Notes under the pieces: generated by a model
Databases searched by the model: none
Told to the model about the DNA's origin: nothing
Seen by the model: the letters and a program-made list of their open reading frames with translations, nothing else
Program-made: the position numbers and the translations under genes
Source: a virus
Reading direction: 5' to 3' (one strand)
UHGV virus genome: UHGV-0021788
Length of the DNA stretch: 64,000 bases
Shown here: piece after piece, positions 1,995 to 50,245 of the stretch
How positions within the stretch are numbered: the first letter of the stretch is position 1
Layout: each line of letters opens with the position of its first letter

Positions 1995-2519
1995 ATGGAT
2001 GTAAAAAATATAGTTAGATTAGACATAATCGAAGGTAAACCAAGAACATTCGTTTATGATAAAAACTTAGAAAATGGATTTTTCCTAGAAATAGATGGAA
2101 AAGCTGAAAATACTGTATTAGGAGTTCAAGCTGATTATGAAGCTTATAAAGTTAAATTAGCTACTGCTGATACTAAAAGAGCTAATTTATTATTCCATTG
2201 CAGTGTTGCAAACCAATATGATGAAAGAAAATTACCTTGTGAATTTGAATTAGAAGCAGGTAGACCAGGAAGAGGATATCAACCAGTTTTAGGTGACATA
2301 GTTACTATACCAGAAAAATTAGTTGCCGATACTGTAGTTGAAAAAGACGAATTAAAATTAGGAGCAGATGGTAAATTAGCTAAAGCTTCTACTGGTGATA
2401 CTGTATTAGCTGTTGTTGAAGCTAAAGAAGACATAGTAATACCTATGTATAAATATGAATTTGGAAAACAAGGTGTAGACGATGCAGTACAAAAATCATT
2501 AGTAATAAGATTTGTATAA
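1995..2519 (+). CDS. Hypothetical head protein, possibly a decoration or scaffold-associated protein.
   Basis: A 174-aa ORF with an AGGAG RBS, lying between the scaffold-like gene and the MCP. Confidence 0.4.
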   Translation: MDVKNIVRLDIIEGKPRTFVYDKNLENGFFLEIDGKAENTVLGVQADYEAYKVKLATADTKRANLLFHCSVANQYDERKLPCEFELEAGRPGRGYQPVLGDIVTIPEKLVADTVVEKDELKLGADGKLAKASTGDTVLAVVEAKEDIVIPMYKYEFGKQGVDDAVQKSLVIRFV

Positions 2520-2562
2520 AATATAAAATATAAAATAAATAAAATATAAGATAAAAAGGAGA

Positions 2563-3020
2563 ATGAGACGAATGTCAGAATTAAATATAACTGATGTAAG
2601 AGATATGGCTTACAGTCTATATAAAGGTAAAACTGCTAATTTTGATGCTGAATCTGCAAATGAAGCTATCAAAAATATAATACTTAAAACAGCTGGATGT
2701 GAAGATGGTTGGGATATGTATAAATTCATGGATAACAAATACAAAGTATTTGCTATAATGAGAGAAATATTAACACCAGTTGTAGCTGAAAATGTTTTAG
2801 CAAGATTTGAATCTTGGGTAGACATAGAAGACATAGCTTTAGGTGATACTAAAGACTTTGAAATAATGAATCAAGAATTATTTGAAATAGGATATGTAGC
2901 TGATGGTACTTCTGAATTAAGAAGACAAAACTTAACTCATGGTAAAATCACTATGACTGGTTTCCAATTAGGAGCTAAATTATATACTGAATTTGACGAT
3001 TTTAGAAGGGGTAACTTAGT
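2563..3020 (+). CDS. Putative major capsid protein, exon 1.
   Basis: A strong RBS is present. The frame is interrupted by the intron; the apparent stop at 3025-3027 is intron sequence. The frame rejoins exon 2 at 4346. Position in the module and the joined size of about 340 aa fit an MCP. Confidence 0.5.
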
Positions 3021-4345
3021 TTACTAGACAGCCCCCTATGTTTGTAAAAAGCATAGCAAATCCTTTTAATTGCTGGAAACTCCTAAAGCTCAATTCACTA
3101 CAACGTAGAGTTAAAACTCAAGCGTGAATGTTACGAAAGTAGAAAAAAGTAATTGAGATTACCCAAGGTTAAATCCTAAAGGTGAATGAATGGACAATCA
3201 GCAGGGAAGATTTTGATTAACACTTAATTTTTTATAAGTTTATGAGTATAATATAAATAAATGGAGGTGATGAAAATGGCAAGAAAGATTTGGAATGAAA
3301 TTACAATAAAAGAATTTATAGAAAATGAAACAAATTATAAATTCATATCAATAGTTAAATTAAACGGAATGAAATCAATGGTATTAGTATGGTGTGGTAA
3401 TCCTAATCATAAGCCTTATAAAGTTCGATTTGATGCATTTAAAGGTACTTCTAAAAAAGAAGGAACGAGATGTGAACAATGTAGAAGAGAAAAAGATACC
3501 ATTTGGACTAAAGATGAAATTATAAAATATGTAGAATCTCAAGATTATAAATTTATAAGATTTGTAAAATTTAATAAATATGCAAGTACAATAGAAATTC
3601 AATGTAATAAAGGACACGAATCATATGAAACATACTTTAGTAATTTCTATAATAATAGAAGATGTTTTCAATGTCATATAATATGGTCTAAAAAAGATAT
3701 TATTAATTTTGTAGAATCTCAAGATTATAAATTTATAAGATTTATAACATATGAAAAAAATAATAGTTTAATAGAGATAAAGTGTCCTAAAGGACATATG
3801 AATCAAGTTAGATTTAGAAAATTTAAAGAAGGAACTAGATGCCCAAAATGTAATAAATCTAAAGGTGAGGAAAGAGTAAAAGATATATTAAAAGAAATGT
3901 GTATAGATTTTAAATCACAATACAAATTCAAAGATTGTAAATGTAAAAAAGAGTTGCCATTTGATTTTTACATACCTTCATTAAATATTGCAATAGAATA
4001 TGATGGAATACAACATTTTGAAATATTACCACATTGGGGTGGCATTGATAAACTTATAGAAACTAAAATACATGATGAAATAAAAACACAATATTGTAAA
4101 AGAAAAAGAATAAAACTTATTAGAATTCCTTATTGGGAATTTAAAAATATAGAAAATATACTTATAAAAGAATTAGTGTTAAATTAGAATAACCTTCAAC
4201 GACTAGAGCATAAGCTCGTACACTCAAGTGAGTGGAAATGGAGGATGCCTAGAAATAGGTAGTGATATAGTCTTGTCTCATGTGAAAGCATGAGTAGTTC
4301 ATAAGAGAACGGATTAGGAGTAACGACCCTAGTTGAAAATAAACG
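3021..4345 (+). mobile_element. Group I intron, class 1, with HEG, inserted in the putative MCP gene.
   Basis: P2 hairpin ctatg...catag at 3036-3056, P at 3067-3078, Q (aatcagcagg) at about 3192-3203, R (cttcaacgacta) at 4194-4205, S (gatatagtct) at 4264-4273. The 3' end ...tgaaaataaacG lies at 4345. The exon phases match (2 nt + 1 nt). Confidence 0.8.
3276..4187 (+). CDS. Intron-encoded homing endonuclease with Zn-ribbon repeats and a Vsr-like/DUF559 (EDxHD-type) domain.
   Basis: Repeated CxxC-containing modules (RCEQC, CFQC, CPKC) are followed by LPFDFYIP..IEYDGIQH..IKLIRIPYWEF. The likely start is the ATG at 3276, after GGAGGTG. Confidence 0.75.
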   Translation: MARKIWNEITIKEFIENETNYKFISIVKLNGMKSMVLVWCGNPNHKPYKVRFDAFKGTSKKEGTRCEQCRREKDTIWTKDEIIKYVESQDYKFIRFVKFNKYASTIEIQCNKGHESYETYFSNFYNNRRCFQCHIIWSKKDIINFVESQDYKFIRFITYEKNNSLIEIKCPKGHMNQVRFRKFKEGTRCPKCNKSKGEERVKDILKEMCIDFKSQYKFKDCKCKKELPFDFYIPSLNIAIEYDGIQHFEILPHWGGIDKLIETKIHDEIKTQYCKRKRIKLIRIPYWEFKNIENILIKELVLN

Positions 4346-4913
4346 CAGAACTGATTTTGCTGAATGGATAAGTAGATTAGGAAAATCTTTTGAAGTTAAA
4401 ATAGGTGAATATATAGTTAGAGGTATAGAAGATGCTTACACTAGCTTAGGTGCTAAATTTGGTGTAACTGGTGCATACCAAGATGAAAAAATGGTTGAAT
4501 TAATAGAAAGAGTTGAAGCCAAAACTGGACAAAAAGCTACTATATACGGAACTAAATCTGCTTTAGCTAAATTAAGAACTGGTGCAGATGGAGCATTCCA
4601 AGCTTACTTATCAGATAGTGACAAAGAAAACATAAGTAAAACTGGTAGAGTTGGAGATTACTATGGAACTCCTGTTGTTGAAATACCTCAATCAGTTAAC
4701 AGAAAAGACGAATTTATGTTAAATAATAAAATGCTTTATGTAATACCTAATGGAACTAAAATAATAAAATTATTATTTGAAGGCGATGTAGATGTTATAG
4801 AAGTATCTGACCCAGCAGTAAGAAAAGATATGCAATTTGAATATATGTTCATGAGAAGAATACAATTAGGTGTTTGTAAAGCTTCTGTTTATGGAATATA
4901 CAAAATGAACTAA
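4346..4913 (+). CDS. Putative major capsid protein, exon 2.
   Basis: The frame opens at 4305. It joins exon 1 to read ...RRGNLV/RTDFAEWISRLG... Confidence 0.5.
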
Positions 4914-6044: not shown

Positions 6045-7008
6045 TAAAGATTATCTTCAAATATTTAGAAGAAGAATGTATACTAATAGAGTTTGTAATC
6101 CATCAGAAGCAGGAACACTGGAAGCTAGAGAAACCTTCGATGATTTAATAGATAATAAACTTGCACCAACTGTACATACAGTTCCTTATGTAAAAAGAGA
6201 TAATGTTGGAAAAAGTACTAAAGATTGTGAGATTAATGTTTTGGTTGAAGATACTTCTAAGAATGACCAAAAAACAAATGATGAAAAATACTTTAGTTTT
6301 AAATGGGAAATGGATGTTAATAGTGGAGATATATTATTTTGGCATGGATTATGGTGGGTAATGTATCATGAAGAAAAGAGAGCAGTATTATCACATAAAA
6401 CTTTTACAGCTAAAAAATGTAATTTTTCATATGATTTTGATTTTCATGGAAAAAGATATATCGTACCAATGTTAGTAACAAACTTAACATTATATAGCGA
6501 TGGTTTAAAAGACAAAGTTTATATGTCTAATGAAGATGGTAAGAGAAGATTAACTTTTACAGATAATGAATTAACAAAACCACTTGATTGTGGTCTTAAA
6601 ATAATGGTTAGTGGTAAAGTCTTTGAAATTACTCATATAGATGATTTCAGTAGACCAGGTGTAAAAGATTGTATTATCGGACAAATTTTTTCAACATCAC
6701 TGGATGATAAAAAGAATAATCATGCTTATAATAAAGTAAATGATATAATTGATGAAAGTGGAATTATAGGTCTTGATTATATATATTTAGGTGGTAATGA
6801 AGTTTATACAACAAATGAAGAAGTTATCAGATGGGAAATAGAAGCAAAAGATAACTGTGTTTACATAGATACTAAATATAGTGGCAAAGGTTGTAGGATA
6901 ATTTGTACGGATGATATTGATTATATAGGCACTAAGGTTAAATTAAAAATAATAAGAAGAAATCAAGAAGATATAATTAAAGAAATTTTAGTGAAGGGGA
7001 TGTTTTAG
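6028..7008 (+). CDS. Hypothetical structural protein (326 aa).
   Basis: It overlaps the upstream gene by 17 nt, indicating translational coupling. Confidence 0.35.
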   Translation: MMDLNNKDYLQIFRRRMYTNRVCNPSEAGTLEARETFDDLIDNKLAPTVHTVPYVKRDNVGKSTKDCEINVLVEDTSKNDQKTNDEKYFSFKWEMDVNSGDILFWHGLWWVMYHEEKRAVLSHKTFTAKKCNFSYDFDFHGKRYIVPMLVTNLTLYSDGLKDKVYMSNEDGKRRLTFTDNELTKPLDCGLKIMVSGKVFEITHIDDFSRPGVKDCIIGQIFSTSLDDKKNNHAYNKVNDIIDESGIIGLDYIYLGGNEVYTTNEEVIRWEIEAKDNCVYIDTKYSGKGCRIICTDDIDYIGTKVKLKIIRRNQEDIIKEILVKGMF

Positions 7009-7011
7009 AAT

Positions 7012-7512
7012 ATGGCATTATATGGTTATACGAATAAAGTGTTAGCTGAGATTTATGCACATTTAATGAAACACCCAGAGCTAACAAAATTCTTATATTA
7101 TACTGATAATGAATATAAAGAAAAAGATATACTAGAACAAGAAAAACCAACAATTAGTGATATAGCAAATAAAAAAATATTTATGTATAAAAGAGTAGAA
7201 GAAACAGTTAAAGATGCTGGTGCTTATATGTTTATAGATGTATATAGAATTACTCCTACAAAAATTGGGGGTAAGATTAGAGAAGTAACTTTTACAGTAG
7301 ATATATTAGTTCATCAAGATTGTGTTGATACAATGAATGGTAATAGAGCAATTTGTATATTATGTGCCCTAGAAGAATCATTAGGTGAGTATGTAAAAAA
7401 ACATTCCATTGGTTCTATTGATTTAATTAGGGTTGCACCTATATTAGGTATAATTAAAGAATTTATTGGATATCAAATGCAATTTAAAGCATATGGATTC
7501 AATGGAGATTAA
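7012..7512 (+). CDS. Hypothetical head-tail or tail-completion protein.
   Basis: Tightly packed, 166 aa. Confidence 0.35.
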   Translation: MALYGYTNKVLAEIYAHLMKHPELTKFLYYTDNEYKEKDILEQEKPTISDIANKKIFMYKRVEETVKDAGAYMFIDVYRITPTKIGGKIREVTFTVDILVHQDCVDTMNGNRAICILCALEESLGEYVKKHSIGSIDLIRVAPILGIIKEFIGYQMQFKAYGFNGD

Positions 7513-7515
7513 TAT

Positions 7516-8340
7516 ATGAAAAAGGTAAAAGAAGAAAAATTATATTTTGGTATACCTATAAAGTTTAACAATGAAGTTACTTTATATCAACCAACTTTAA
7601 AAGATATAATTTATAGTGATTTATCTTTTGAGGCTCTAGTAGAACCATTTATGTCTTTAGATAAAAGAAATTTTGAATCAGAAGAAGAAAATAGTGAATT
7701 AAATAATTTTGATATGTTTTTTATTCAAATATTTACTTCTTATCTATCTGTACTTAAAAATGGTGAAAATATCACTTTACAAGAATGGTTAGATTCAGAA
7801 ATCTCTAAAGGCTTAGTAATTAATAGGCTTGTAAAAGTTATTAAATTTTTGTTCAAGACTGATGATGTTCAAGTTTCAATATGTGAAAATATCATTGATA
7901 AATTGGATGATAATTATATTTTAATCAATAAGTCTTATAAAATAAATAGAAACAACTATGAGGACTTTAAATGGATAATCTGTGATATCTTTGATACAGA
8001 TATGAAAGTAGAAAAAAAACGTCCTCAAACTGAAGAAGAAGATGAACTTGCTAAAAGATTCGCTAAGAAGAAAGCAAGTTATGAGAAACAATATGGTAGA
8101 GAAGCTAGAGAAGGTAGAAATAAAGACCATTTAACAATTTATACTCTAGTTAACTACATAGTAAATAATAAAAATTCTCAATACACTTATGAAAGTATAC
8201 AAGATTTAACAATATATCAAATTAAAAATACTTTCAAATATTATCAAAATCAAGAAAGTTATGATATAGATATCAGATATAGAACTAGTGGTAATTTTAA
8301 AATAGATAAAAAAAGTGAACATTGGTTCTTTGATAAATAA
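7516..8340 (+). CDS. Hypothetical structural protein (274 aa).
   Basis: Tightly packed, immediately upstream of the major tail gene. Confidence 0.35.
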   Translation: MKKVKEEKLYFGIPIKFNNEVTLYQPTLKDIIYSDLSFEALVEPFMSLDKRNFESEEENSELNNFDMFFIQIFTSYLSVLKNGENITLQEWLDSEISKGLVINRLVKVIKFLFKTDDVQVSICENIIDKLDDNYILINKSYKINRNNYEDFKWIICDIFDTDMKVEKKRPQTEEEDELAKRFAKKKASYEKQYGREAREGRNKDHLTIYTLVNYIVNNKNSQYTYESIQDLTIYQIKNTFKYYQNQESYDIDIRYRTSGNFKIDKKSEHWFFDK

Positions 8341-8373: not shown

Positions 8374-8560
8374 ATGGCTACACTTTTTGCTATAAAAGAT
8401 GCTATAGATTTAAAAATAACTAAAAAAGGTGAACAAACAGTTTTCACTACAATAGACTATTTAAATGATTGTCAAATAGAAATGGACTCAGAACAAGTAT
8501 ATGCACTTAAAAAAGGAGATAACTACATATCATTCTCAAGTGGTAGAACAGGAATAACTT
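8374..8560 (+). CDS. Putative major tail (tube) protein, exon 1.
   Basis: AAAGGTG RBS. The frame is interrupted by the intron and resumes at 9700. Confidence 0.5.
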
Positions 8561-8771
8561 ATTAATAATAAAACGTTCCCTATGTTTGTAAAAAGCATAG
8601 CAAATCCTTTTAATTGCTGGAAACTCCTAAAGCTCAATTCACTAAAACATAATCTGAAAATGATAAGTGTGAATGTTACGAAAGTAGAAAAAAGTAATTG
8701 AGATTACCCAAGGTTAAATCCTAAAGGTGAATGAATGGACAATCAGCAGGTAAGATTTATATTTATTTTAC

Positions 8772-8800
8772 TTTACTTTTAATAATTAAATTTGTATAAT
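8772..8800 (+). promoter_or_regulatory. Intron-internal sigma-A-like promoter for the HEG: TTTACT-17-TATAAT.
   Basis: tttact, a 17-nt spacer, then tataat, followed by a GGAGGTG RBS and the ATG at 8823. The same cassette precedes the other HEGs. Confidence 0.5.
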
Positions 8801-8822
8801 ATAAGTAAATGGAGGTGGCAAA

Positions 8823-9536
8823 ATGGGAGTTATTAAATATGATTATGATTTCGTTAAAAAATATATCGAAAGTTTTAATTATAAATTATTAAGTGATTAT
8901 ATTGGTATACATGATAAAATAACATTAAAATGTCCTAAAAACCATATTTATAAAACTTCATTTAATAGTTTTTATAGTAACAACTGTAGATGTGGAAAAT
9001 GTAAAAATTTAGAAACAGCAAATAAGAGAAAATATTCAATTGAATACGTTAAAGAATATTTAAATTTATTTGGATATAAATTATTAACAGAAAACTATAT
9101 TAACAATAAACAAAAATTAAAAATAGAATGTGAAAAGGGACACATTTTCTATATGAGTTTTAGTAAATTTAAAAATGCAAAACAAAGATGTCCAGTGTGC
9201 AAAATGTCAAGTGGCGAACAAGAAATTTATAGAATATTACATAAATATTTTGATGACATTGAAATACAATATAAATTTAATGACTGTAAAGATAAAAAAA
9301 GACTTCCATTTGATTTTTATTTACCTCAATATAATTGTTGTATAGAATTTGATGGTATTCAACATTTTGAATATCAGCCACATTTTGGAACTTATTCTAA
9401 ATTTTTAAAACAGCAAAAAAGAGATGAAATAAAAACAGAATATTGTAAAAAAAATAATATAAAATTAATAAGAATAGCTTATTATGAATTTGATAAAATA
9501 GATGAAATTATAAAAAATGAATTAAAAGTAAAATAA
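8823..9536 (+). CDS. Intron-encoded homing endonuclease with a Zn ribbon and a Vsr-like/DUF559 (EDxHD-type) domain.
   Basis: CPKNH, CGKC and CPVC motifs are followed by LPFDFYLPQYNCCIEFDGIQH...IKLIRIAYYEF. Confidence 0.75.
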   Translation: MGVIKYDYDFVKKYIESFNYKLLSDYIGIHDKITLKCPKNHIYKTSFNSFYSNNCRCGKCKNLETANKRKYSIEYVKEYLNLFGYKLLTENYINNKQKLKIECEKGHIFYMSFSKFKNAKQRCPVCKMSSGEQEIYRILHKYFDDIEIQYKFNDCKDKKRLPFDFYLPQYNCCIEFDGIQHFEYQPHFGTYSKFLKQQKRDEIKTEYCKKNNIKLIRIAYYEFDKIDEIIKNELKVK

Positions 9537-9699
9537 TAAATATGAATAAACTTCAACGACTATCCCTAAATGGGAGTACACTCAAGTGGGTGGAAATGGA
9601 GGATACCTAGAAATAGGTAGTGATATAGTCTACTCTTACATGAAAATGTAAGCAGTCGAAAGACGGTATGAGATTAACGACCTCATGCGAATGTTAAGG

Positions 9700-10070
9700 C
9701 ATTGACAATGAATTGTCAAGTAATGGACGATGACTTCTTATGTATGATGCTTGGTGCTACTAAAAGTTCAGATGGTAAAATATCTGTAACATCTTCAGTT
9801 CCAAACCAAAGTTATACAGCAGAAGGTACTTTTAGAACTACTTCATTAGCTGGAGACCAATACAAAAAAATAAAATTCTACAACTTAAAAGCACAAGTTT
9901 CAGCTGACTTAACTTTATCTGCTTCTGATGTTTCTGAATTCTCATTAAAATTAGATATAATGGCAGATGATACTGGTAAAATATTAGATATAGAAAACAC
10001 TACTGGTGGTATATCTGCTGGATTTAATGAACCAGAAGTTGTTTCTATAAAAACTAAAGCTGATAAATAA
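9700..10070 (+). CDS. Putative major tail protein, exon 2.
   Basis: The frame opens at 9678. The joined product of about 186 aa is typical of siphovirus tail tube proteins. A strong terminator follows. Confidence 0.5.
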
Positions 10071-11191: not shown

Positions 11192-14100
11192 GTGAGCGAA
11201 TTTGATATAAGAATTGGTACGCAACTAGATACTAGTAAAGCGTTACAAGAATTAATGGAATTTGTCAAAAAATATGACAATAAAGAAAAGATAAATATAG
11301 ACATAGGTCAATCAAAAGGTGCTAATAATGTAAAGAATACAACTAAAGCTATGAAAGAAATGCAAAAAATAGCTAAGACATTAGGAAATACAAAGATTGA
11401 CGTAGGTAGTAACATAGGTAAAGCAACCAATGAAGCTACCAAATCATTAGAAAATAGTATAGATAAACAAGCCAAATCTATTGCTAAAATAACTAGTGGT
11501 GCACAAAGAGATTTAACTAAAGATGCTCAAAAGGGTATTGAAAATAGTCTTAAAGGTATTACTACAGAAATGAAGAATACCCAAAGAAATGTCGACAAGA
11601 TGATTGGTACTCTTGAACGAGCTAAGAAGGTTGAATTAATAGACCAAAAAGGTTTAGATGAAGGATTAGCTAAATTAAAAGATATGAAAGCTAACCTTAG
11701 AATAGACAATGTTGGTGATGTAGAGAAAAAATTAGGCGAAGTAGCAAATGACTATAAAAGATTAATGTCAGATGCAACTAAAGAAGCATTTAATAATGTT
11801 GAAGTATCAGGATTATTAGAGGATTTAAAAGTTGTTAGAGAAGCTATGTCAGCTAAAAACATGGACTTAACTGGTGTTGATACTTTAATTTCTAAAGCTA
11901 AACAACTTACTTCTTTAAGTGTTGACCAAATGTTAAAACAATATAAAGAGTTAAGACAAGTATTTAGTAAAGAATTAAAGATACCATTAGGTTTAAATGG
12001 TGTAATGAATGCTGAAACTGCAATTAAAAATGTTTTAGATTATAAAAACAAATTAACTGCTAAAATTTCAGTTGAAACAAATTCAGAGCAAGTAGATATT
12101 TTAAGAGATAAAATAGTAAGATGTGATGAAGTTGTTAAACAACTTGAAGGAGACTTAAATTTAGTAGGTAGAAGTACAGCATTAAACTTAATGGAACAAT
12201 CCAATGAAAGAGAATTAGATACATTAAGTGCTAAGTTAAAGAGATGTAAGAATGATTATGCTAACTTAGAAAAAGAAAGACAAAGATTAAATAGAGATAG
12301 TAGATACATTGGAACAGAAGATTTAAGTAATATAGAAAAACAATCATTAGCTATAAAGAAAGCTCTTGATAGTTTAAATATTGGAAATTTAAATACAGAT
12401 AAAATAAATAAAGTTACTGGCGATATAAATAATTTAAGAAAAACAATAGAATTAACTGGTAATTCAGCTAAAAAATTAGATATAGAAGCAACAGTTAAAG
12501 TAGATATGAAAACTGCTCAAGACCAATTAAATGGTATGTATTCTGCTTTAATAAAATCTAATAAATCTACCGTAATGGTTAAAAAATATAAAGATGAATT
12601 AGAAGGATTATTTGATTTATCTAAAACTAATCCAGGTGTAGCATTAGATAAAATAAGTGGTTTTATAGAAAAAGTAAATAAAGAAGCAAGTAATAAAGGT
12701 TTAGGTAAGATAACTGGTGGTTTAGACCAATATAAACAATATTTAAAAGATTATGAAACATTAGTTAAAAAGGCTAGTGGTACTACAGATATTGGTTTTG
12801 CAAAAGCTTACAAATCAGAAGTTACACAAATAGAAAAAGCATTAGACCAATTAGAAAGTGGATTTAATCAAACTCAAAAATCTATGGCTAAAGCTTTAAG
12901 ATTAGAATCAATTAATAAGAACACTCAAGAGTTTACTAATCAAGTTGAAAAATCTATTAAGAAAACTCAAGAATATAAAAAAGAGTTACAAACTCTTAAT
13001 AAAGATGTAAATTTTGATGGTCTTACTTCTAAATTAGGTCAAAAAGTCAAAGAAGAATTTGACGGAATGATTAACAAAACTAATCAATTAGAAAAAAGAC
13101 TTGGTAATATGTTATCATCAGGTAACATAAATACTACTGAATTATCTAAATTAAAATCAGAACTTGAAAGTACTTTTTCTGGTCTTTCTAAACTTAAAGA
13201 TACTAGTATTAAAATTAAAACTGATGAAACTATATCAGGACTTAATAAAATTAAAAAAGATTTAGAATCATTAGGTCAAGATACTAGTCAAATAGAAAGA
13301 GTTATTAATGCATTAAAACAACTTAAAGCTAATTTCAGTGGTGGTACAGCAGGTTATAAAGAATTAGCTAATGGAATAAAAGCTATTGGAAAAGATAATA
13401 ACTTGGAAAAACTAAATAGTTCTTTAGAAAAATCAACTAAAAAATTTAATAACTTAGCTAAGGTTGTTGGAGAATTAAAGGTTAAAAATATAGGAAATAT
13501 AGACCAAGGTGCTTTTCAATCTTTAGACAGTCAAGTTGCACGAATACAATCTCATATAGAAGGTTTAAATAAAAAAGATATATCTTTAATAGATGTTAAA
13601 AAGGTTGAAGCTGAAGTAAATGAATTAAGCAACTGTGTAGAAAAAACGAGTAGTGAATTAACTCAGTATAGTAGATATTTAGAAGAATATAAAAGATTAT
13701 CTAGCCAAGCAGGTAAAACAAATGATGTTAATTTAGCTACAAAATATCAACAAGAAGCAGAAGGTATAAAAGGTGTATTAACTCAATTAGAAAGCGAATT
13801 TACACAAGCTCAAAAATCTATTGCTCAAGGATTAAAAACAGATGCCTTCTCAAATGCTAATGAAAAAATGTCTTCTGAAATTAATAAAACAATTAATACA
13901 GTTGATGGTCTTAAAGAAAAACTTAATTCATTAAATAAAGATGTACATTTTGAAAATATGACATCTGAATTAGGTAAAGGATTAAATGACCAATTTAATA
14001 CTTTAACTAGTAAAGGTGAAGAATTAAAAAATAAATTAAGTAAAATATTAGCATCTGATAATGTGGATATTTCTGCTTTAAGTAAAATTAAAAAAGAAAT

Positions 14101-16323
14101 AAATGAGTTTGCAAGTGAAGTTAATAATTTAAAAAATTCTGCAATGGATAATGTTATTAGAGAATCTTTTGATAACATTAAAATACCTAATTTAAATAAA
14201 CAACTAGAAGCAGTTAAAGATTTAATGTCACTTAAAAATATGGATACTAGTGGTATAGATGCCTTAATAGAAAGAACTAAAAAACTATCAAGCTTAAGCG
14301 TAGATAAAATAGGTCAAGAATTTAAGGAAATACAAAATGCACTTGGTAAAGAAATTAATTTACGTTTAGGTACTAGTGGTATTAAAGATATAGAATCTGC
14401 ATTAAAAGTCATATTACAATATAGAAATGAATTAAAAAATAAAATAGCAGTAGAAACAGACCCATCAAAAGTAAAAGACCTTAATAGTCAATTAGAAAAA
14501 ACTGAAAGCATAATAGAAAAACTTAAAGGTCAAACAAGTAATGGGCTTGGTGCAAGTTTAATTGGTGATGCTGACAAAAACAATTTGAAACAATTAGAAG
14601 ATACTGCTGATAAATTAAAGAAAACATTCTCTAATTTAGAAAACGAAGTAAATAAATTAAACAATGAAGCATTGAATAAAGTTGACATAAGTCAATTAAG
14701 AGAAATGAATGAAGTTGTTAATGATGTAAAGAAAAATTTAGCATCTATTGGAGAAGGAAATGTTAATGTTAATTCAATAAATAAAACAGCACAAGACATA
14801 GAAAAATTAAAAGGACTAATAGAAAACACTAAAAAGACAATTAGTGATATGAAATTGGAAGTTTCATTTAATGTTAAATCAAATGAAGCAGAACAATATT
14901 TAGCAGGTTTTGAATCAGCATTATTAAGATTAGGTAAATCAACCAGTGGAATAAATGCTTTAAAGAGTGAATTTGAAAGTATAAAAAATTCAGCTAATGG
15001 AAATTTAAGTAGTGCCATAAAAATGATTGATGACTTTATTAACAAATTAAAACAAATGGGTAGTAAACAAGGCTTAGGCAACATAAGTGGTACTATGTCT
15101 CAATATAAACAATATACTAAAGAATTACAACAAGCCATGAGTGGGGCATTAAAATCTAGTGGTTCTGATACAGCTAAAGGATTTGAACAACAAGCTGAAC
15201 GAATAAAGAGTGCTATAAAACGTTTGGTTGCAAGTTTCAAAGAATCACAAAGAGAATCGGCTAATGCTTTTAATGGTAGTACATTTAGTGGTTTTTCTTC
15301 TAAATATGAAGCTGAAATAAATAAAGTTGAAAAAAGCATAAACAGATTTAAATCATCAATGCAAAACTTAGATAAAGCTGTAAACTTTAAAGGCTTTCAA
15401 ACAAATTTAGGTAAAGGTTTATCTGAAGAATTTGACCAAATAATGGCGAAAGCTGAACAATTAAGGGATAAATTAAAGAGTGCATTATCTTCTGGTACAT
15501 TTGATATAAGTGAAATAAATAGAATAAAAGATGAATTAAAACAAGTTGAACAAGAAGCAGATTCATTAAAACAAAAATCTATAGTATTAAAATGTGCTGA
15601 AAGTATAACAGAATTAGAAAGACTTAGTGGTAAGATAAAAGATATAGGTGGAGACACATCAAAAATAGAAGAATTAAAAAATAAATTTGTTACACTTGGT
15701 ACAGGTATAAGAGAAGGTACTACAGGAATAGATGATGCAATTTCTAAATTAAAATCCTTATCTTCCGAAGCACAAAGAACTGCTAGTTCTTTTGAATCAA
15801 CTACTGGTAAAATAGGTTCTTTTGGTTCTAAAATACAAGGTTTCTTTAGTTCTATAAAGAATTCATTTAGTACTTTTACTATTGGTAATTTAATGGCTGA
15901 TGGTATAAATCAAGCTGTTTATCAAATAAAAGATACTATAACAGGTTTAGATGAAGCAATGGCTGAATTTAAAAGGGTTGCTCCTGATAACTTTAGTTTA
16001 AATACATCTAATTTACAAAGTGTTGCTAATGAAGCAAGAGAAATAGGTATTAGTGTTGGACAATCAGTAGAAGATGTTATCACTGGAATGAGTACTGCAT
16101 TACAAGCAGGTGCAGGTGATATTAAAACAGCTTCTGAAATAGCTAAGAGTTCTGCTATATTCCAAAATGTTACAGATATGAGTGCAAAGGGTGCTTCAAA
16201 AGCTATTTCTTCAATGGTTAACCAATATTATGATATGGATTCAGCATTAAATCAAGTTGACCACGGTGTAGGTAAATCCGTAAAAGGGTACAACAACCTA
16301 ACCGAAGCGATGGATTTGGTAAT
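11192..16323 (+). CDS. Tail tape measure protein, exon 1.
   Basis: A long coiled-coil-rich ORF. The track's C-terminal DLPFILEII residues are intron read-through. The conserved TMP core (FSTFTIGNLMADGINQAVYQ...) lies near the exon end. Confidence 0.7.
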
Positions 16324-16595
16324 TGATTTGCCGTTTATATTAGAAATAATATAAATTATTAGAGGGCAAAATCGGTGAAGACTAAGTTTTTATAAATATG
16401 TTGATACCGAGATAACTTATTAGATTGCGAAAGGCTAATAAGTATTGTAGAGCATAGGAATTGAATAAATATAATATTCCCAAGAGTGCCCTCCATTCTA
16501 ACGTAAAAAGACGAGGATGAAAATATATGCCATACTGAGCTAGAATTGACTAGCTGATGAAAATGAGGGAAACCTCCAGAGCATAAGATAAAAAG
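16324..16595 (+). mobile_element. Intron-like element, class 2 (ORF-less, about 270 nt), inside the TMP gene.
   Basis: Noncoding in all frames. It shares attgccgt...attagaggg...atcggtgaag.ctaagt...ataccgag...tctaacgt.aaa...tgaaaatatatgc...ataaaaaG with the element at 17397-17750. The flanking exon ends are similar (gaagc.at.g.tggtaat). Confidence 0.55.
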
Positions 16596-16629
16596 CTTAT
16601 GGATAATAACAATAGAAATTACGCTGGTT
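16596..16629 (+). CDS. Possible 34-nt TMP mini-exon between two introns, encoding (I)LWIITIEITLV. This is uncertain.
   Basis: It is the only frame that bridges exon 1 (phase 2+1) to the next exon at 17010. The alternative is a composite intron spanning 16324-17009. Confidence 0.3.
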
Positions 16630-17009
16630 AGAATTAGCCAGGCTATATGGAAACATGTAGTACAAATCTCTTTTGAATTGCTGGAAAGGACTTAGAGCCT
16701 ATTGAACTACAACGTAGATGGAAACATCAAGCGTGAATGTTTAAAAATCAATAGGATTGTTTAATCAGCAGGTAAGATTCTAAGTAATAATTTTATATTA
16801 TTATATGAATAAACTTCAACGACTATCCCTTGGATGTTGAAATACATCAATAGGAGTACGGCTCAAGTGATTGGAGTGGGTGAGAATCCCTTAAATGGAA
16901 GTGGAAGAGGACTTATAAAGGTTCAAGATATAGTCTACTCTCGTAGGAAATCTACGAGCAGTCCTTTTTTGGACGGTATATGTGTAGCGAACATATATGA
17001 ATATTAAGG
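16630..17009 (+). mobile_element. Group I intron, class 1, ORF-less, inside the TMP gene.
   Basis: P at 16676-16687, Q at 16763-16772, R at 16814-16825, S at 16926-16935. Only about 40 nt separate Q from R, where the other copies carry a promoter and HEG. The 3' end reads tgaatattaaGG. Confidence 0.75.
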
Positions 17010-17396
17010 AATAACTTTGCGATTTCATCTGATGGTGTAACAGAAGCATTACAACGTGGTGGTTCTGTATTATCTAACTATGGAGTAGATTTAAAAGATT
17101 CTATTGCAATGATAACTGGGGCAAATGAATCTTTACAAGACCCCGCTCGTATAGGTAATGGTTTAAAATCTATAGCAATTAACCTTTCAGGTATTAAAAC
17201 AAATGCAAAAACAGGTGCTCTTGAATTAAATAAAACAGCAAAAGCATTGCAAGAAACTGCTAAGATAGATATATTTACTGATAGTACTAAAACACAAGTT
17301 AAAGATGTTGTTACTATAATGGATGAAGTAAAAGATAAATGGGCTTCTTTAACTGATGTTGAACAAAAAGGATTGTCAGAAGCTATAGCTGGTAAT
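17010..17396 (+). CDS. Tail tape measure protein, exon 3.
   Basis: The frame opens at 17001. It contains the conserved TMP core (NNFAISSDGVTEALQRGGSVLSNYGVDLKDSIAMITGANESLQDPARIGNGLKSIAINL). The track's ORF at 17109-17402 is the same frame. Confidence 0.65.
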
Positions 17397-17750
17397 ATGT
17401 AAGATTAGTAAATTTATATAAATTTTTATAAAATACAAAAATCTTAAAATTGCCGTCTTTGATAGAAATATTAAAGATAATTAGAGGGATGTATCGGTGA
17501 AGCCTAAGTCGAAAGATATGGTAATACCGAGGGTATCTTAACAGAGAATATCCGTAACGCATAGGGAGTGAGCGATATTGTTAGCAATAACCTCCCCACG
17601 AGCTTCCTCCACGATTATATATAGGATAATCACTTATAGATGTTGCTACTATAAGTTCTAACGTTAAACGAGAGTGAAAATATATGCTGGACTTATGAGA
17701 AATCATAAGAAGTGGATGTGTGAATCGACACACTATTAATAGATAAAAAG
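17397..17750 (+). mobile_element. Intron-like element, class 2 (ORF-less), inside the TMP gene.
   Basis: A paralog of 16324-16595. It is noncoding. The downstream frame opens at 17748, so exon 3 joins exon 4 at a codon boundary. Confidence 0.55.
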
Positions 17751-20700
17751 CTCCACGATAACAAATCGAAAACCCAAGCCGGTGTATTCCAAGCATTGAT
17801 GACAGGTTGGGAAAGAGTTCGTCAATTCCAAAAAGAATACAATGAAGGTTGGATGATAGGTTCAGCCCAAAGAGAAAATGAAATCTTTATGGATTCCATT
17901 GCTGGTAAAATGAATACTTTAAAAGAAAATCTTAAAGGATTATTAACTAGCAATGTTACAACAGATATGTTTAAAGGTCTATTAGATGGTGCTAATAAAG
18001 TAGTAGAAGCAGTAGGAAAAATAAGTTCAAGCTTAGGTAAAATTGGTTCAGCTGGTGCTTTAGTAGGTATTTCATCTTTCGTAAAAACTTTAGCAAATTT
18101 GGATAAAGCTAAAACAATAGGTGGTGGTTTTACAGGATTTGATAAAGTTTTAGAAGTAATACAAGGTACTGCTGTTACTTCTTCTGGTGAAATAAAAACA
18201 CTAGGCGATAGTTTTAAAGAATTAGGTGTTAAGACAACTCTATCTAAAGTAGCATTAGGATTATTTAAAGGTGTATTAATGGGTATTGCATTTACTGCTG
18301 TTGTTAAAGGAATAGATGCTATGGTAAAAGCATGGGATAATTATATTCATGCAACAGAAAATGCAGTAAAGGCTTCTAAGGAAAGACAAGATGGATTTAG
18401 AGATGAAGCACAAACATTAAGTACTAAAAAATCAAGTCTACAAGAAATAGCTAAAGAATATGATAATTTAAATAATAAATCTGATAAAACTGCTGAAGAT
18501 TTAACTAGATTAAATGAATTAAAACAACAAATAGGACAAATAGCTCCTGACCTTGTTAAAGGATATGATTCAGCAGGTAATCCAATATTAAATCTTACTA
18601 CTAGTATGCAAGGTTATATAGCTGAATTAGATAAAGCAATTGCTAAACAACGAGAATTATATAATTATGAAACTAAAAAACAAGCACAAGAATACATGAA
18701 GAAAAATGACACTAAAAATGGTGCTCAAGACCCAGATAGGAATTCTTATGAAACTGAATTAAATCATCTTCAAAATGCAAATGATAGAAAAACTAGAGAA
18801 GAAAAAAGATATACTGGTAGCTTAAAAAATATTATTAAAGATAGAAATAAATATAGAGAAGACCAAGAAAAAAGCATTAATGAAAGATTAGAAAGGATTA
18901 GAAACGCACAAACAGAAGTTAATAATAGAGATGCTACAATTGAAGATAATTATGTTAACGAATTTAATAAGAAAACCAAATTAGCTGAAAAAGAACAAAA
19001 TAAATTTGCTACCTTTATGAAAGGGTTAAATTGGGGTACTTATGGCGAAGCAGAAGCCAATAGAATGTCTAAAGGTTTACAAAAATTATCTGAAAAGACT
19101 GCATTCACAACTCAAGAGATGACAAAAGGATTATCAGGTAGTCTATCAAAAAAAGTTTCAGAAGAAATTTCTAAAGTAAATGCAGAATTCAAAAAAACAA
19201 ATGCTGTAAATGAATGGGGAAAAGGTTTAAGAAAAATAGCTAATGAAACAGGAAAATTTGATTTTTCAAATTGGAGTAATTACTTATCAGAAGTTCAAAC
19301 TCGTTTTGAACAAGGAGTAAGTACTAATGAACAATATACACATTCATTAGGAATTATGGCTGATGCTATGGAAGATTTAACTGGTATAGATTCAGATGTA
19401 TTCTTACCAGCTTTAAAAGGTGGAGCAGATTTAGAAGAAGCCTTTAAATCAGCAACTGAAGGCTTAAATGGTTTTATGAGTGCTTATGGTTCTTCTACTG
19501 CAAAATTACAACAAGGTGATTCATTTGCTAAAAAATTAGAATCTCAATTTAAAGAACTTCAAAATTTTGAAACTGAATTTGAAGGTCAATATGAGATGCA
19601 AGGTAAAGTTAGTGTAGATTGGTTAGTAGAACAAAAAGATAATGAAGATTTACCTAAGCAATTAAGAACTATAATAGATGCAGTAACAAAAGATGGAGAA
19701 GTAACAGAAGTAGAAGAAAAATTAGTATTAGCTTGTGAAACAGAAATAAAAGATAAAGGTAAATTAGAACAAAGCACAATAGATGCAATAAATCAAGTTA
19801 TGGATGGAACATGGGATGTAAATAAAACTATTGAAATAGGTGGTATGGAATTTACATCATCTGAAATAAGAGAATTAATGTCATTGGCAGACCAATTAGG
19901 TATATCTTTAGAAGGTTTAAATATTGGTGATACAGGATTAGAAGGAGAAAATCAAAAAGCTCAAGCATTAAAAGATACAATAGATTCAATTACAGATAGA
20001 GATATAAAAGTAGCAATAGAAGCAGAAGGATTTGAGAATTCAGACCAAGTTAACAACATAATGACAGTTATTGACCAAATAGATGGAAAACAAGCCAAAG
20101 TCGATTTTATAGCAGATGCTTCTCAATACTTTATGGAAAATGATAGTGTTGAATCAGCAATAAAAGCTATGCCTGATGAAATAAAACTTAAATATAATAT
20201 TGGTGTTGAAGGCGATGAAAGACTAGAAGGAATACAAAGTAGACTTGAAAAATTACCAAAAGATATTAGAACTATGGTATATGCTCAAACATATGGTGTT
20301 GAAAATGTTGAAATGCTAGAAAACATAGTAGATGCTTTTGGTGGAAAAACTGCAACAGCAATATTACAGTTAGATGGTATAGATGAAGCTCTTAGAAATG
20401 CTAGTACATTTGAGGAACAATTAAAAATAATTGGAGATTTTATATGTCAACCTGGAGTAGAAATAGAAGGTAAAGATGACATAATTAAAACAATTGATGA
20501 AATATTAAAGAAATTAAAAGAAACAGATGAAAAAGAAAGTAATCCTAAAATAAATGTAGAAGGAGATACTTCTGGTGCAGAGAAAGTAGAAAAAGAAGTA
20601 GACAATGTAGGCAATAAAAAAGGTACTGCTAAAGCAGATGTGGATGGAGATACTTCTGGTGCAGAGAAAGTAGAAAAAGAAGTAGACAATGTAGATGGTA

Positions 20701-23700
20701 AAGAAGGTACTGCTAAGACAAAAATAGAAGGAGATACTTCTGGAGCTGAAAAAGTAAAGAAAGAAGTAGATAATTTAGCTGTCAACAAAAAAGGTACGGT
20801 TACTTTATTAGTAAATGGTCAAGAAAAAATAGCTGAAGCTAAAGTTGTCAAAGGTCAATTAGAAGTAGATGGTAAAGCAGTTACAAGTATTTCTGTTAAT
20901 GGTAAAGACCAATTACCAATAGCTATTAATGAAAAAGGTCAATTAGAAGTAAATGGTCAAGCTATAACTGATGTAACTGTAAAAAATGGAGACCAATTAA
21001 AATTAACAAGAAATGAAAAAGGTCAATTAGAAGTAAATGGTCAAGCTATAACTGATATCAAGGTATATGGGAAAGAAAATGTTAAAGATGCAAAAAAAGA
21101 TGTTGATGATTTAACCAAAGATAATAAAAATGTTAGTATTAACATTGATGTTTCATTAAAAGAAACTGTTGGTGAAATATTATCAAGATTTGGATTAAAT
21201 AAGAAAACAGAAAATGTTGAAATTAATGTAACATGTAATGATAATGCAACTCCAGTATTAGAAAAAATAATGGCAAGACAAGATAAAACTATACAAATAA
21301 AAGTAGACTGCCAAGATAATGCAACATCTAAAATAAACAGTATAGCTAAAATAGGAAATAAAACTGTAACAGTTACAATAAATTGTCAAGATAATGCAAC
21401 ATCTAAAATAAACAGTATAGCTAGTATGGGTAATAAATCTGTAACAGTTACAATAAATTGTCAAGATAATGCAAGTTCTACAATAAATAGAGTTACAAGT
21501 GCACCTTCTTCTAAAGCAATAAATGTTGTAGTAACTTGTACAAATGGTGGAGCAGTTCTTAATACTCTTTCTCAATTAGCTAGTAAAGTAATACCTAGTA
21601 AAAAATTTACTATAAACTGTACAGATAGTGCTAGTAGTGTAGTAAGTAGAGTTAATGGTTTAAAAATATCTGATAAGAAATTTACTATAAATTGTACAGA
21701 TAATGCAACTGCTAAAATAAATAAAGTTATTAGTAAAAAAATACCAAATAAATCATTTACTATAAGTTGTACTGATAATGCTAGTAGTAAATTAAGTAGT
21801 ATTATAAGTAAAATAAGTAATATTCGTAGTAAATCAGTAACAATTACTACTAATCATGTAAGCACAGGCGACCATTCATCTGTTGGTGAACCAACAATTG
21901 TTGATTTACAACCTCAACCATTTAGTAGTACTCAAGCTTCTAATCCTCAAGTGCAATCATTAGGAGAACAAGTTCAAGTATTAAGCGATAGTGTGCAACA
22001 ACAAACTGACAACAATAATGAAGTTAGCGTAATGGCTAAGAAAACATATAAAGCTAATATTGATACAGGTTTAACAGTAAGTGCAGTTAAATATAATATT
22101 GATTTATTAACTAACATGACTAATATGCTTAAAAAATTAGGAACTCAAGTTGATATATTAAAAGCTAAACAAGAAAGAACTTGGGGTACTGCAAGTGCTA
22201 AGTTACTTAGAAATCAAATTTCTTTACTAACTAAACAACAAGATTTAACTAAAATAAATATTAAAAACATGGAAGGTATGGCTAAAAAACTTAAAGGTAG
22301 TTTACAAAAACAAGGATTTAAGTTTAAAGATGATGGAACTATAAGTAATTACAATAGTAAGCTTATAAAAATGCAAAAAAATGTTGAAAGTTTAGAGAAA
22401 GCTGAAAAAGCACTAGAAGACCAAATAAGTAAAACTGAAAAACAAATTTCAAAATCTGAAAAGAAATCTTCAAGTAAGAAGAAATCAACTAGTAAGAAAA
22501 AGAAAAGTACTAGTAAGAAAAAGAGTACGAGCAAAAAGAAGAAAACTTCAAGCAAGAAGAAATCAACTAAGAAAAAGAGCACTAAGAAGAAAACTACTAA
22601 GAAGAAGAGTGCTAGTAGAAGCAATAGAAAAACTACATCAAGTAAAGCTAGTAAAAAGAAGACTACTAAGAAGAAAAAATCAACTAGTAAGAAAAAAAGT
22701 ACATCAACTAAGAAGAAGAGTACTAAAAAGAGTACTAAAAAGAAGACTACTTCTAAGAAGAAATCAACCACTAAGAAGAAAAGTACATCTTCAAGCAAGA
22801 AATCAAAAGCAACTAAAGCATTAGAAAAGAAAAAGAGCGGATTAGAAAAGAAAAAGGATGCAATAAGCAAACAATTAGAAAAAGCACAAAAAGAATTATC
22901 AGAAACTCAAAGCAAATTAAATGAATATTATAATTTACAATTTAGTGAAATTCCTGAAGCTCAACAACAATGGGAAGAATATGCTAATGCTATAGCAGAA
23001 GCTAAGGCAGAAATAATTAGATGTGAATTAGAAGCTAAAACATTCTTTAAGACAGTTAAGATGGAAATGAAAGATGCTATGATTAGCAGAAATGAAACTT
23101 GGGCAGATACATTTATGTTGAAGGCTGATTTAAGTAGTTGGTCTAAAGCAATAGGATATATTAAAGAAGCTAATAAATTATTAGCAAAAAATCAACAACA
23201 TCAACAATCAAAATTAGAAACAGCTCAAGCAAGAGCAGAAGATAACAAGGCATTTTTAAAGAAACAAGGATTTAAATTTGATAAAAATGGATATGTAACA
23301 GGTGCTGAAAAAACTTTACAAAAACTTAAAAAGAAGAAATCATCACAAGAATATGATGCTATAAAAGAAGCATTTGATAGTTATGTTGATGATATGTATG
23401 AAAATATTCCCAAAGCTGAAAATGAATGGTGGAAATTAGAACAGGAAATAAAAGAAAATGAAAGACAAATAAAAGAAACTACTAAATCTATGAATGATTT
23501 AGTTAATTCAGCTAAAGTAGATAAATTAACTAGACAATTTGATGTACTTTCAAATACTTTAGATATATTAGACCTTAAAATGGAACGTGCTTATGGAGCT
23601 AATAAAATAGACTATATGAAACAACAACTTGATATATTATCTAATATGAAAAGTAAGAATCAAGAAATCATTAATCAAAATACTGAGTTATTAAATAATA

Positions 23701-24611
23701 GTAAGAAACAATTAGTTAAATATGGCATTACATTTGATGAAGATGGCAATATAGACAATCTATCAAAAGCATTGAAAAAATTAGATAATCTACAAGATAT
23801 GGAAGATTTAAAAGATTTAGCTGATGAATATAATGATTATAAAGATTCAATAGATGATGCTAGTAAATCAATTGAAGAAGAAACTAATAAACAACTTGAA
23901 TTAAAAGATTCAATGATGGAAATTAGAGAAGAAATGAGAAAACTTAGAGATGATGCATGGGTTAAAACTTATGAAAATGGTCTAAAAGTTATTCAAAATC
24001 GTATTGATACAATAGATTCTTTATTAGATTTAGAAGATGAAAATCAATTTAGTTTACTAAATCAAAAAATTGAAGAATATAAGAATTTAACTAAAGCGAC
24101 TGAGGATAGTTTGGCTTATCAAAAACATAGAAAAATCACTATGCAAAAAACATTGATTGATTATGGTTTCACTATTAATGATGATGGTACAATAGATGGA
24201 ACTGCTAATAAATTAGAACAACTTAAAAATACATTATCTGAAACTGAATTTGGTATAGTAAGTGATACATTAGAAGATTATTTTGATACTGCTTTAGATA
24301 CAATTCCTGAATTAGAAAGAGAATTAATAAAATATCAAAAAGATTTAAAAGATATACAAAATACTAAACTAGAAAAGACTAAAACTATTGAAGAAAAAAT
24401 TACTGAAATATATAACGATGAAATAGATAAAAGAACTAAAAAGATACAAGAAGAAGCAGAAGCACAAACTAAAGCACTTAATAAAGCCAAAGAATCTTAT
24501 CAGAGATGGAGAGACGAAGTTGACTATAAAGATGATTATAATAAACAATTAAAAACTGTTGAAGATTTACAAAAGAAAATAGAAATAGCAAAACGAGATG
24601 ACAGCCTAACT
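17751..24611 (+). CDS. Tail tape measure protein, exon 4. It contains hydrophobic segments, tandem peptide repeats and a lysine/serine/threonine basic tract.
   Basis: Continuous frame from 17748 to 24611. Internal tandem repeats lie at about 20560-20775, 20826-21065 and 21306-21500. The lysine/serine/threonine tract lies at about 22456-22815. Confidence 0.65.
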
Positions 24612-24825
24612 GGGTAATGTTGCCCTAGTCGTAAAGTAATTTGCGACTGAAAATAGATTTAATTGCAGGTAATCCCTAAAGCTCTACACCACAATATATC
24701 TGAAAAGAATATATGAAGGTACGAAAGTAGAAAAAACGTAGAGATTCTCATATGGTTAAATCCTAAGTGAGAGTAACAATGGGTGTTCATGCAAGGAAGA
24801 TTCTAAATTAAATTATTTTAAATAT

Positions 24826-24854
24826 TTTACTTTTAATAAAATAAGCAGTATAAT
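24826..24854 (+). promoter_or_regulatory. Intron-internal promoter for the HEG: TTTACT-17-TATAAT.
   Basis: -35-like tttact, a 17-nt spacer, then tataat, followed by an AAGGAAGGGG RBS and the ATG at 24878. Confidence 0.45.
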
Positions 24855-24877
24855 ATAAATAAGGAAGGGGTGAAATT

Positions 24878-26002: not shown

Positions 26003-26177
26003 TTTAACATGAATAACCTTCAACGACTAGAATGCGAATTCGTAGGGTGTAAGTGATTGACACTCGAAAAGGTCTACCCTTAATATTAAGGTGAAGAAAT
26101 AGTCTAGTCTCATATGAAAGTATGAGCAGTTCATAAGAGAACGGTATATGTTTAGCGAACATATATGAATATAAGCG

Positions 26178-50223: not shown

Positions 50224-50245
50224 ATAAGTAAAGTGAGGTGATAAA

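Follow-up and report, generated by a model that had tools for sequence, protein, structure and literature searches.

The window analysed in this work, 64,000 nucleotides of UHGV virus genome UHGV-0021788, carries the major capsid protein gene of an SPbeta-like gut phage, and this gene is very probably split by a mobile group I intron of subgroup IA2, 1334 nt in length, which would be removed by joining G3011 to C4346. Three parts are present on the plus strand, namely an N-terminal capsid open reading frame (ORF) at 2572-3011, the 1334-nt insert at 3012-4345 and a C-terminal capsid ORF at 4346-4913. According to the alignment with homologues (MSELN start, ...DDFRRG/R...; a slash within a sequence marks the splice junction), exon 1 encodes residues 1-146 of a YonB-family capsid protein and the first two bases of Gly147, and exon 2 supplies the third base of Gly147, residues 148-335 and the stop codon. 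The insertion point thus follows the second base of codon Gly147, and the intron, designated I1, would run from U3012 to its terminal G4345. A preliminary description of this region had read the two ORFs as one capsid protein interrupted by a group I intron with a homing-endonuclease gene. The upstream ORF (2563-3027) indeed stops within the insert, at the TAG of 3025-3027, and the downstream frame is open from 4305 to 4913. The start at 2563 needed correction, as the likely start is ATG 2572: the ribosome-binding site AAGGAG (2556-2561, plus strand, read from the sequence) lies 10 nt before this ATG and 1 nt before ATG 2563, and the homologues begin with MSELN. Because of this start, and because the proposed join that contained Asn-Leu-Val (NLV) is wrong, the product has 335 amino acids (aa) and not about 340.

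The two ORFs encode one split protein, since the joined product matched uninterrupted homologues in one piece. By tblastn, single-piece matches at 93-100% coverage were obtained in 78 GenBank phage records, namely Clostridioides phiCD211-like phages, Brevibacillus phage Sundance and Bacillus phages, where the protein is annotated as major capsid protein. Almost all of the 135 metagenomic homologues found at E<=1e-5 are uninterrupted and 330-336 aa long. The best of them, P0001, lacks the intron and is 98-99% identical (332 of 335 residues, same length). PF27364 (YonB), a recent Pfam family, is recorded for P0001 and for all 120 homologues listed, and phrog_4088 covers the capsid protein over its full length (E=8e-84). 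The NCBIfam model 'HK97-fold major capsid protein' matched at E=2.4e-7, under that model's cut-off, and a Pfam scan with a library lacking PF27364 gave Phage_capsid only at E=0.003. The capsid protein had no match when its sequence was searched against the PDB. An AlphaFold2 (AF2) model was built from a 44-sequence alignment, with a predicted local distance difference test score (pLDDT) of 71.9 and a predicted template modelling score (pTM) of 0.63. Foldseek against the PDB with this model returned 221 matches at E<=0.001, and the top 50 of the 221 were all HK97-fold shell proteins (encapsulins, HK97 proheads, gene transfer agent and phage capsids) at a probability of 1.00, with modest template modelling (TM) scores of 0.4-0.56. 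Gene order in the window and its relatives is YonD-like gene, a 174-aa gene with a weak head-decoration match, YonB, YomX, YomW, YomV and the YomU tube gene. Judged from this order, the module is an SPbeta-type head-tail module and YonB lies in its head part, where the preliminary description had placed the major capsid gene. The HK97 fold of the model also bears out the capsid fold it expected, and the joined 335-aa protein is accordingly classed, from model and family matches, as a predicted YonB-type major capsid protein. In a relative, L007, the YonB homologue (2292-3288) is called as two ORFs of 203 aa and 85 aa with a gap of just 128 nt; this is too short for a group I intron, and the interruption may be a frameshift or another kind of break.

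Sequence comparison places the insert at 3012-4345 among group I introns of subgroup IA2. Ten ORF-stripped introns were aligned (alignment A3), of which the window supplied six, relatives three and a Kayvirus one; the sister introns in the window are called I2-I6, and I2' is the tube-gene intron of the relative L020. On A3, RNAalifold found P3, P4, P5, P8, P9, P9.1 and P9.2 with compensatory changes. The hand-drawn I1 structure had 87.5% of its cells paired on A3, compared with 32-43% when the partners were slid, and double changes occurred in 45 of the 77 pairs, which was matched by none of 500 shuffles. The helices were defined on I1 and checked across the 10 introns. In the 5' half (3036-3218, plus strand) lie P2 (3036-3040/3052-3056), the 5' strand of P3 (3061-3066, with P3' at 4240-4245; 100% paired, 4 compensatory pairs), P4 (3072-3076/3198-3202; 96%), P5 (3081-3083/3192-3194; 100%), P5a (3089-3095/3151-3157; 87%) and the 5' strands of P6/P6a (3204-3205 and 3210-3214, with P6a'/P6' at 4186-4194). 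The 3' half (4186-4345, plus strand), which extends through the tail and terminal G4345, contains P7 (4201-4205/4268-4272), P7.1 (4206-4217), P7.2 (4221-4234), P8 (4246-4261), P9 (4277-4294), P9.1 (4297-4310) and P9.2 (4313-4333). P7 is invariant, with 5 of 5 pairs in 10 of 10 introns, and is formed by the GACUA/UAGUC segments of the R element (TTCAACGACTAGAG, 4195-4208) and the S element (GATATAGTC, about 4262-4275). P8 itself was 94% paired, within the 90-94% observed for P8, P9, P9.1 and P9.2 together, all with compensatory changes; P7.1 (75%) and P7.2 (57%) fall in a variable, poorly aligned region. The presence of P7.1/P7.2 and of a three-part P9 therefore indicates subgroup IA2. The 5' half of I1 is 70-83% identical to introns of Staphylococcus, Listeria, Bacillus, Enterocloster and Clostridium phages. 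With the intron of phage c-st / D-1873 it shares 80% identity over 146 nt, and the match in D-1873 is annotated 'Group I catalytic intron'; the ORF-less core of I1 is 73.9% identical (348 columns) to the D-1873 group B IStron ribozyme. This covariation-supported fold, together with the match of the internal ORF to a phage intron endonuclease family, bears out the intron proposed in the preliminary description. An intein was ruled out, as the internal ORF is out of frame and bounded by stops.

The 5' exon of a group I intron usually ends in U, and this -1 U is near-universal. In the minimum-free-energy fold of I1 (-9.5 kcal/mol), the P1 hairpin (3008-3035, plus strand) pairs GGGG 3008-3011 and U3012 with G3031 and CCCC 3032-3035; beyond the wobble come a 3x3 internal loop and then a 4-bp extension (3016-3019/3024-3027), an architecture shared by I2. 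On the best reading, the last exon base is not a U paired with the guide G: the U3012-G3031 pair exists, but U3012 would be intronic. At the 3' end, a terminal G does precede exon 2 (G4345, then C4346). The 3' tail ...UAAACG/ is homologous to the tails of canonically spliced Kayvirus introns, whose tube-gene boundaries are GGUU/UAAC...UAUAAACG/GUUCAG, and the terminal G is therefore G4345, which also agrees with the exact ends of the inserts I2 and I2'. Thus the 3' splice site named in the preliminary description is supported, whereas its 5' site, U3020, adds NLV and lacks P1 pairing.

Judged by sequence comparison, the best junction joins G3011 to C4346 and reads ...AGG GG/C AGA..., because joining U3012 to C4346 causes a frameshift, because sister introns insert exactly [U...G], and because group B IStrons set a precedent. 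The canonical join of U3012 to C4346 gives GGU CAG AAC UGA, a frameshift to a stop, and the same one-base excess arises with the canonical join in sister introns. At the protein level, the junction is ...DDFRRG-R(T/V)DF... in every homologue without an indel in alignments of 14 and 44 sequences, that is, A1 with 13 homologues and A2 with 43 homologues (down to 45% identity), each plus the joined product. The ligated sequence expected from G3011 and C4346 is ...AGAAGGGG-CAGAACUG... / AGAAGGGGCAGAACTGA, compared with AGAAGGGGTCAGAACTGA from the canonical frameshifted join. Two sister introns could be compared with close intron-less alleles. I2 reads GGAA[TAAC...TTAAGG]CATTG in the window, where the exact intron-less allele in L020 reads GGAACATTG; I2' reads AAAGGAG[TAATTTG...ACAAAG]ATAAC in L020, where the intron-less window reads AAAGGAGATAAC (GGAGATAAC). 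In both the inserted DNA is exactly [U...G] following a non-U base, which is an A in I2. The Thr codon restored by the shifted I2 junction is conserved in all six of the intron-less tube-gene alleles compared, which have five distinct protein sequences. The precedent comes from BcISt1, for which sequencing of reverse transcription PCR products showed a 5' exon ending in G and an intron beginning with the U (Tourasse et al. 2014, PMC4227781). Group B IStrons have a GG-ending site and a U-G pair that is displaced by one base pair, with an internal loop directly after it (PMC4227781). The P1 geometry of I1 matches that of BcISt1 (AGGGG/U, with U3012-G3031 and then the 3x3 loop), and the D-1873 element has the same GAGG/U...G-CCUC arrangement.

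An unlikely alternative is that the same intron is cut canonically after U3012 and that exon 2 starts at A4347, the intron being 3013-4346 and ending in C (expected ligated sequence AGAAGGGGTAGAACTGA). The two joins encode an identical protein. The six intron-less alleles, from separate contigs, read AGAAGAGGT/AGA at the DNA level; GGT/AGA equals all six with zero substitutions, while the G3011-C4346 join needs a synonymous T-to-C change, and the near-universal -1 U stays paired with G3031. The DNA comparison for I1 alone thus favours U3012/A4347, and paralogue I6 fits a canonical U(-1) junction exactly when compared with L017, so the shifted rule may not hold for every copy; these two observations speak against a cut after G3011. 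On the other side, a cut after U3012 requires a non-G terminal intron base, which is without precedent, and it is contrary to the homologous Kayvirus tails, which end ...UAAACG/ at canonical junctions. When the same rule is applied to the sister introns, an invariant Thr becomes Ile in I2, Asp becomes Val in I2' and a UAA stop arises in I4. Moreover, BcISt1, the experimental precedent, removes the U. The alleles also differ in that the intron-plus ones have AGG in place of the AGA found in all six intron-less ones, a change that gives P1 an extra G-C pair.

The join given in the preliminary description, U3020 to C4346 (...CTTAGTCAGAACTG), is highly improbable. It is in frame, places a U at -1 and has G at the intron end, yielding 338 aa from ATG 2572 (341 from ATG 2563) with Asn-Leu-Val added. 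However, no NLV occurs between G147 and R148 in any of the 13 (A1) or 43 (A2) homologues, U3020 has no pairing G since it sits in the tetraloop of the P1 extension, and the conserved P1 pairing of GGGGU with GCCCC is left unused. The join stays in frame only because 3020-3011 = 9. Three other candidates were rejected: a 3' splice site placed within the P9.2 loop (G4325), which would keep the frame but add 7 residues; ribosomal +1 frameshifting on canonically spliced mRNA, as the affected genes have no common sequence context; and an overlapping one-base P10 pair with the guide G, as I2' has A there. Further junction observations came from other copies. An I5-type intron in L017 (about 1660-2997) reads GGAC/AAAAUUU-GUCC, with no U at or beside the 5' junction, and the base following the I5 stem and its partner covary, being U-A in the window and A-U in L017. 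L021 and L022, which are intron-less at the I5 site, were too diverged to fix the I5 junction, and a scan of IMG/VR with the exon upstream of I4 gave 0 matches.

It is also scarcely credible that no splicing occurs, the capsid gene being either a disrupted pseudogene within a defective element or expressed as two separate polypeptides on either side of a free-standing endonuclease gene. Two negative results point that way and count against the intron as proposed. A scan of metagenome contigs for the ligated junction TTTAGAAGGGGYAGARYWGAYTTTGC gave 0 matches, and Rfam was silent at the capsid locus, with no group I match on 2950-4420 in E-value mode. Rfam likewise found no group I intron in the full 64-kb window, at the gathering threshold or in E-value mode. 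The silence on I1 is probably because the ORF insertion (a 912-nt gene in a P6a loop of about 970 nt) splits the model; the ORF-less paralogue I3, which aligns with I1, scored 68.9 bits on RF00028 against a gathering score of 50 in a 651-nt targeted search. Against an unspliced gene, the flanks of the endonuclease gene form the covariation-supported ribozyme, and sister introns occur in at least six further genes or sites of this structural module. Purifying selection acts on both exons, and also on the endonuclease gene, between intron-plus lineages about 20% diverged: the ratio of nonsynonymous to synonymous polymorphism (pN/pS) between the window and L003 was 0.23 in exon 1, 0.43 in exon 2 and 0.32 in the endonuclease gene. 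The same intron occupies the same site in at least three diverged groups, namely the window, the pig-gut contigs L003-L005, and L018-L020, which are IMG/VR genomes of 173-204 kb. Purifying selection and retention of the intron across diverged groups argue against a pseudogene. In the AF2 capsid model, the intron site falls in a turn between helix 138-145 and the long helix 151-177; since the insert is placed within a codon at this turn, ahead of that HK97-fold helix, it is unlikely that each half could function by itself.

The internal ORF is open at 3261-4187 (308 codons), and sequence matches support its membership in a large phage intron endonuclease family (695 proteins at E<=1e-10; phrog_559, E=9e-65). 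The putative homing-endonuclease gene itself (3276-4187, plus strand, in the terminal loop of P6a) would start at ATG 3276, with GGAGG (3263-3267, plus strand, read from the sequence) 8 nt upstream. This start gives 303 aa, as in L003 and in P0121, a protein 99% identical to the I1 endonuclease. Further upstream lies TATAAT at 3243-3248, and an equivalent block of TATAAT and ribosome-binding site precedes the paralogous endonuclease genes (family D11). A promoter and terminator scan gave nothing above chance; the TATAAT may nevertheless serve as a promoter. The upstream regions of the I5 and I6 endonuclease genes are 99% identical over 89 nt, including TTGACT-17 nt-TATAAT.

An invariant C-terminal block, CPxC..GE...QY.F..C...LPFDFY..N..IE.DG..H...D..K..YC...IKLIRI, is common to six paralogues in the window. 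D235, E246, D248, H252 and D272 are invariant in the six and are candidates for catalytic residues of the EDxHD type. The paralogues matched CapR and treble-clef zinc-finger domains above cut-offs, PvuRts1I-like_N at the cut-off and DUF559 weakly. An AF2 model of the endonuclease (pLDDT 80) gave only two high-probability Foldseek matches, both to E. coli Vsr: 1cw0_A (1.00; TM-target 0.57, root-mean-square deviation 3.9 over 142 columns) and 1vsr (0.99). One homologue is also named 'very-short-patch-repair endonuclease' by its source. These matches suggest that the endonuclease consists of zinc-ribbon DNA-binding repeats and a Vsr-like nuclease domain. Less favourable to this assignment, the E-value of the fold match was weak (0.026), and no sequence match to the solved structures of Vsr or I-Bth0305I (3R3P) was obtained; a PDB sequence search with the endonuclease and a paralogue profile gave only spurious zinc-ribbon matches. 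The label 'HNH' carried by phrog_559 is not supported, as Pfam and NCBIfam scans of the protein and its paralogues found no HNH family and the fold match is to Vsr.

In the mechanism we propose, the capsid gene would be transcribed as a single pre-mRNA, in which the intron RNA would fold into P1-P9.2 with the 303-aa endonuclease gene looped out of P6a. Self-excision would proceed by two transesterifications, joining G3011 to C4346. The 5' cleavage would be non-canonical, as the intron would begin with the wobble U of the U3012-G3031 pair in the manner of group B IStron ribozymes, and the spliced product would be the 335-aa capsid protein, colinear with its uninterrupted homologues. The endonuclease presumably cuts the intron-less allele at TTTAGAAGAGGT^AGAACTGAT, and repair would then copy the intron in (homing). 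The intron-less site, its putative target, is TTTAGAAGAGGTAGAACTGAT, and the exon context in intron-plus alleles is AGG GGC.

Among the closest known systems, group B IStrons (BcISt1 of Bacillus cereus; CbISt of Clostridium botulinum and phages c-st/D-1873) share ribozyme features with I1, being IA2 with P7.1/P7.2 and an extended P9. Like them (PMC4227781), I1 is inserted after a GG-ending site, AGGGG, and its 5' exon ends in G; the shifted splice site has been shown for a group B IStron and is predicted for I1. The mobility modules differ, as I1 has a Vsr-like homing endonuclease gene in the P6a loop, whereas a group B IStron has an IS607-type transposon near its 3' end. I1 gave no matches to the transposase of such an element (serine recombinase ORF A plus ORF B). 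Its 3' end is ...AACG rather than CGG, and it sits in phage late structural genes, unlike group B IStrons. Since the only ORF of I1 encodes a Vsr-like endonuclease and no transposase, it is a ribozyme relative of these elements and not an IStron. The best GenBank match to the capsid intron core, in phage D-1873 (2455-4255), is an IStron in which the ribozyme is followed by an IS-type transposase, and this match links the introns of the window phage to the IStron element family.

Staphylococcus Kayvirus/Twort-like IA2 introns (tail-tube genes of phiIPLA-RODI and phiSA039) have a core 70-75% identical to I1 and share with it the UAAC start, the P2 sequence and the ...UAAACG 3' tail. They too reside in late structural genes, some with endonuclease genes, but contain one extra U (stem-U/UAAC...) and splice canonically after U, unlike I1. 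For mycobacteriophage LittleE, splicing of a capsid intron has been shown, and the capsid protein is thereby restored colinear with intron-less relatives (Pope et al. 2013, PMC3706429). As in I1, this intron interrupts a siphovirus-type major capsid gene and carries a putative homing endonuclease gene. It differs in its canonical U(-1) and terminal G and in having the endonuclease ORF on the opposite strand, and its capsid family and host (high-GC actinobacteria) are unrelated to those of I1. The LittleE endonuclease is given as HNH in a figure legend and as LAGLIDADG-like in the text (PMC3706429), which also cites a capsid intron in lactococcal phage Tuc2009. The earlier statement that intron-split capsid genes are uncommon thus holds within this capsid family, but such genes are not new. 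I-Bth0305I, an EDxHD Vsr-like homing endonuclease, originates from the recA intron of a phage (Taylor et al. 2011, PMC3239194). Like it, the I1 endonuclease is encoded by a phage group I intron and would combine N-terminal DNA-binding repeats with a C-terminal Vsr-like nuclease domain. The N-terminus has CapR/treble-clef zinc-ribbon repeats in the I1 endonuclease and NUMOD/HTH motifs in the I-Bth0305I family.

At least six further ribozyme copies were found in the window, with R elements at 522, 9552, 16815, 26019, 51177 and 53316, and the structural module contains in total seven homologous introns, six with endonuclease genes and one without. The window opens inside one of them: positions 1-760 comprise the last part of a paralogous endonuclease gene, which ends at 505, and a ribozyme 3' half with R element 522-535 and S element 677-690. 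It follows that the ORF at 763-1974 probably represents exon 2 of the YonD-like gene, which lies ahead of the capsid gene in relatives. Within this ORF, the stretch 979-1275 encodes an acidic, Asp/Glu/Lys-rich segment with 12-15-nt periodic repeats (25 copies, family D1) and may represent a scaffold-like region. I2 (8555-9699; endonuclease gene 8823-9536), whose 5' half is almost identical to that of the capsid intron, splits the YomU-like tail-tube gene into exons 8374-8554 and 9700-10070. The tape-measure gene (11192-26795) has at least four interruptions. These include the ORF-less I3 (16628-17009; RF00028 match at 16619-16958, 68.9 bits) and I4 (24615-26177), which carries a 374-aa endonuclease gene. 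Two more ORF-less inserts in this gene, at about 16355-16627 and 17402-17790, are alike and matched no Rfam family; a targeted Rfam search of the insert at 17380-17810 also found nothing. They may belong to a different intron class. I5 (49980-51320) and I6 (52159-53478), both endonuclease-bearing, split a gene spanning 48703-56380. Homologous introns lie elsewhere in the tube and tape-measure genes of relatives (L002, 5900-6346; L020, reverse strand, 6800-8130; L008, 18928-20090). Because relatives have introns at other sites and lack some of the window copies, this group of phages is polymorphic in its intron positions. No GenBank phage was matched by megablast with 24 kb of the window.

Capsid introns with endonuclease genes, Vsr-like intron endonucleases and a shifted 5' splice site all have precedents. 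We did not find their combination described, that is, a group-B-IStron-type ribozyme moved by a homing endonuclease in place of an IS607 element and present in many copies in the late genes of an SPbeta-like gut phage. I1 and at least five sister copies in the 64-kb structural module rather likely constitute a lineage of such homing-endonuclease-driven group I introns. For annotation, gene callers yield two 'hypothetical' ORFs and a mislabelled 'HNH' gene at this locus, and the corrected join gives a clean 335-aa capsid protein. Automated annotation would miss every group I intron in the window, and the sub-kilobase targeted search caught just one.

The interest of the system would seem to rest mainly on its splice-site geometry. 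If the proposed lineage is real, the 'shifted' choice of the 5' splice site, so far reported from a single bacterial IStron, would characterise a ribozyme clade in general and would work efficiently. Its efficiency would be enough for the most highly expressed late genes (capsid, tail tube and tape measure), and the intron would be freed from the need for a U at its insertion site. For RNA biology, these are natural, independently evolving ribozymes that apparently cut 5' of the wobble U, for which one IStron has been the only experimental example so far, and they offer a test bed for how the 5' splice site is measured. For phage biology, a multi-intron module with site-polymorphic copies suits the study of homing and of marker exclusion between co-infecting gut phages.

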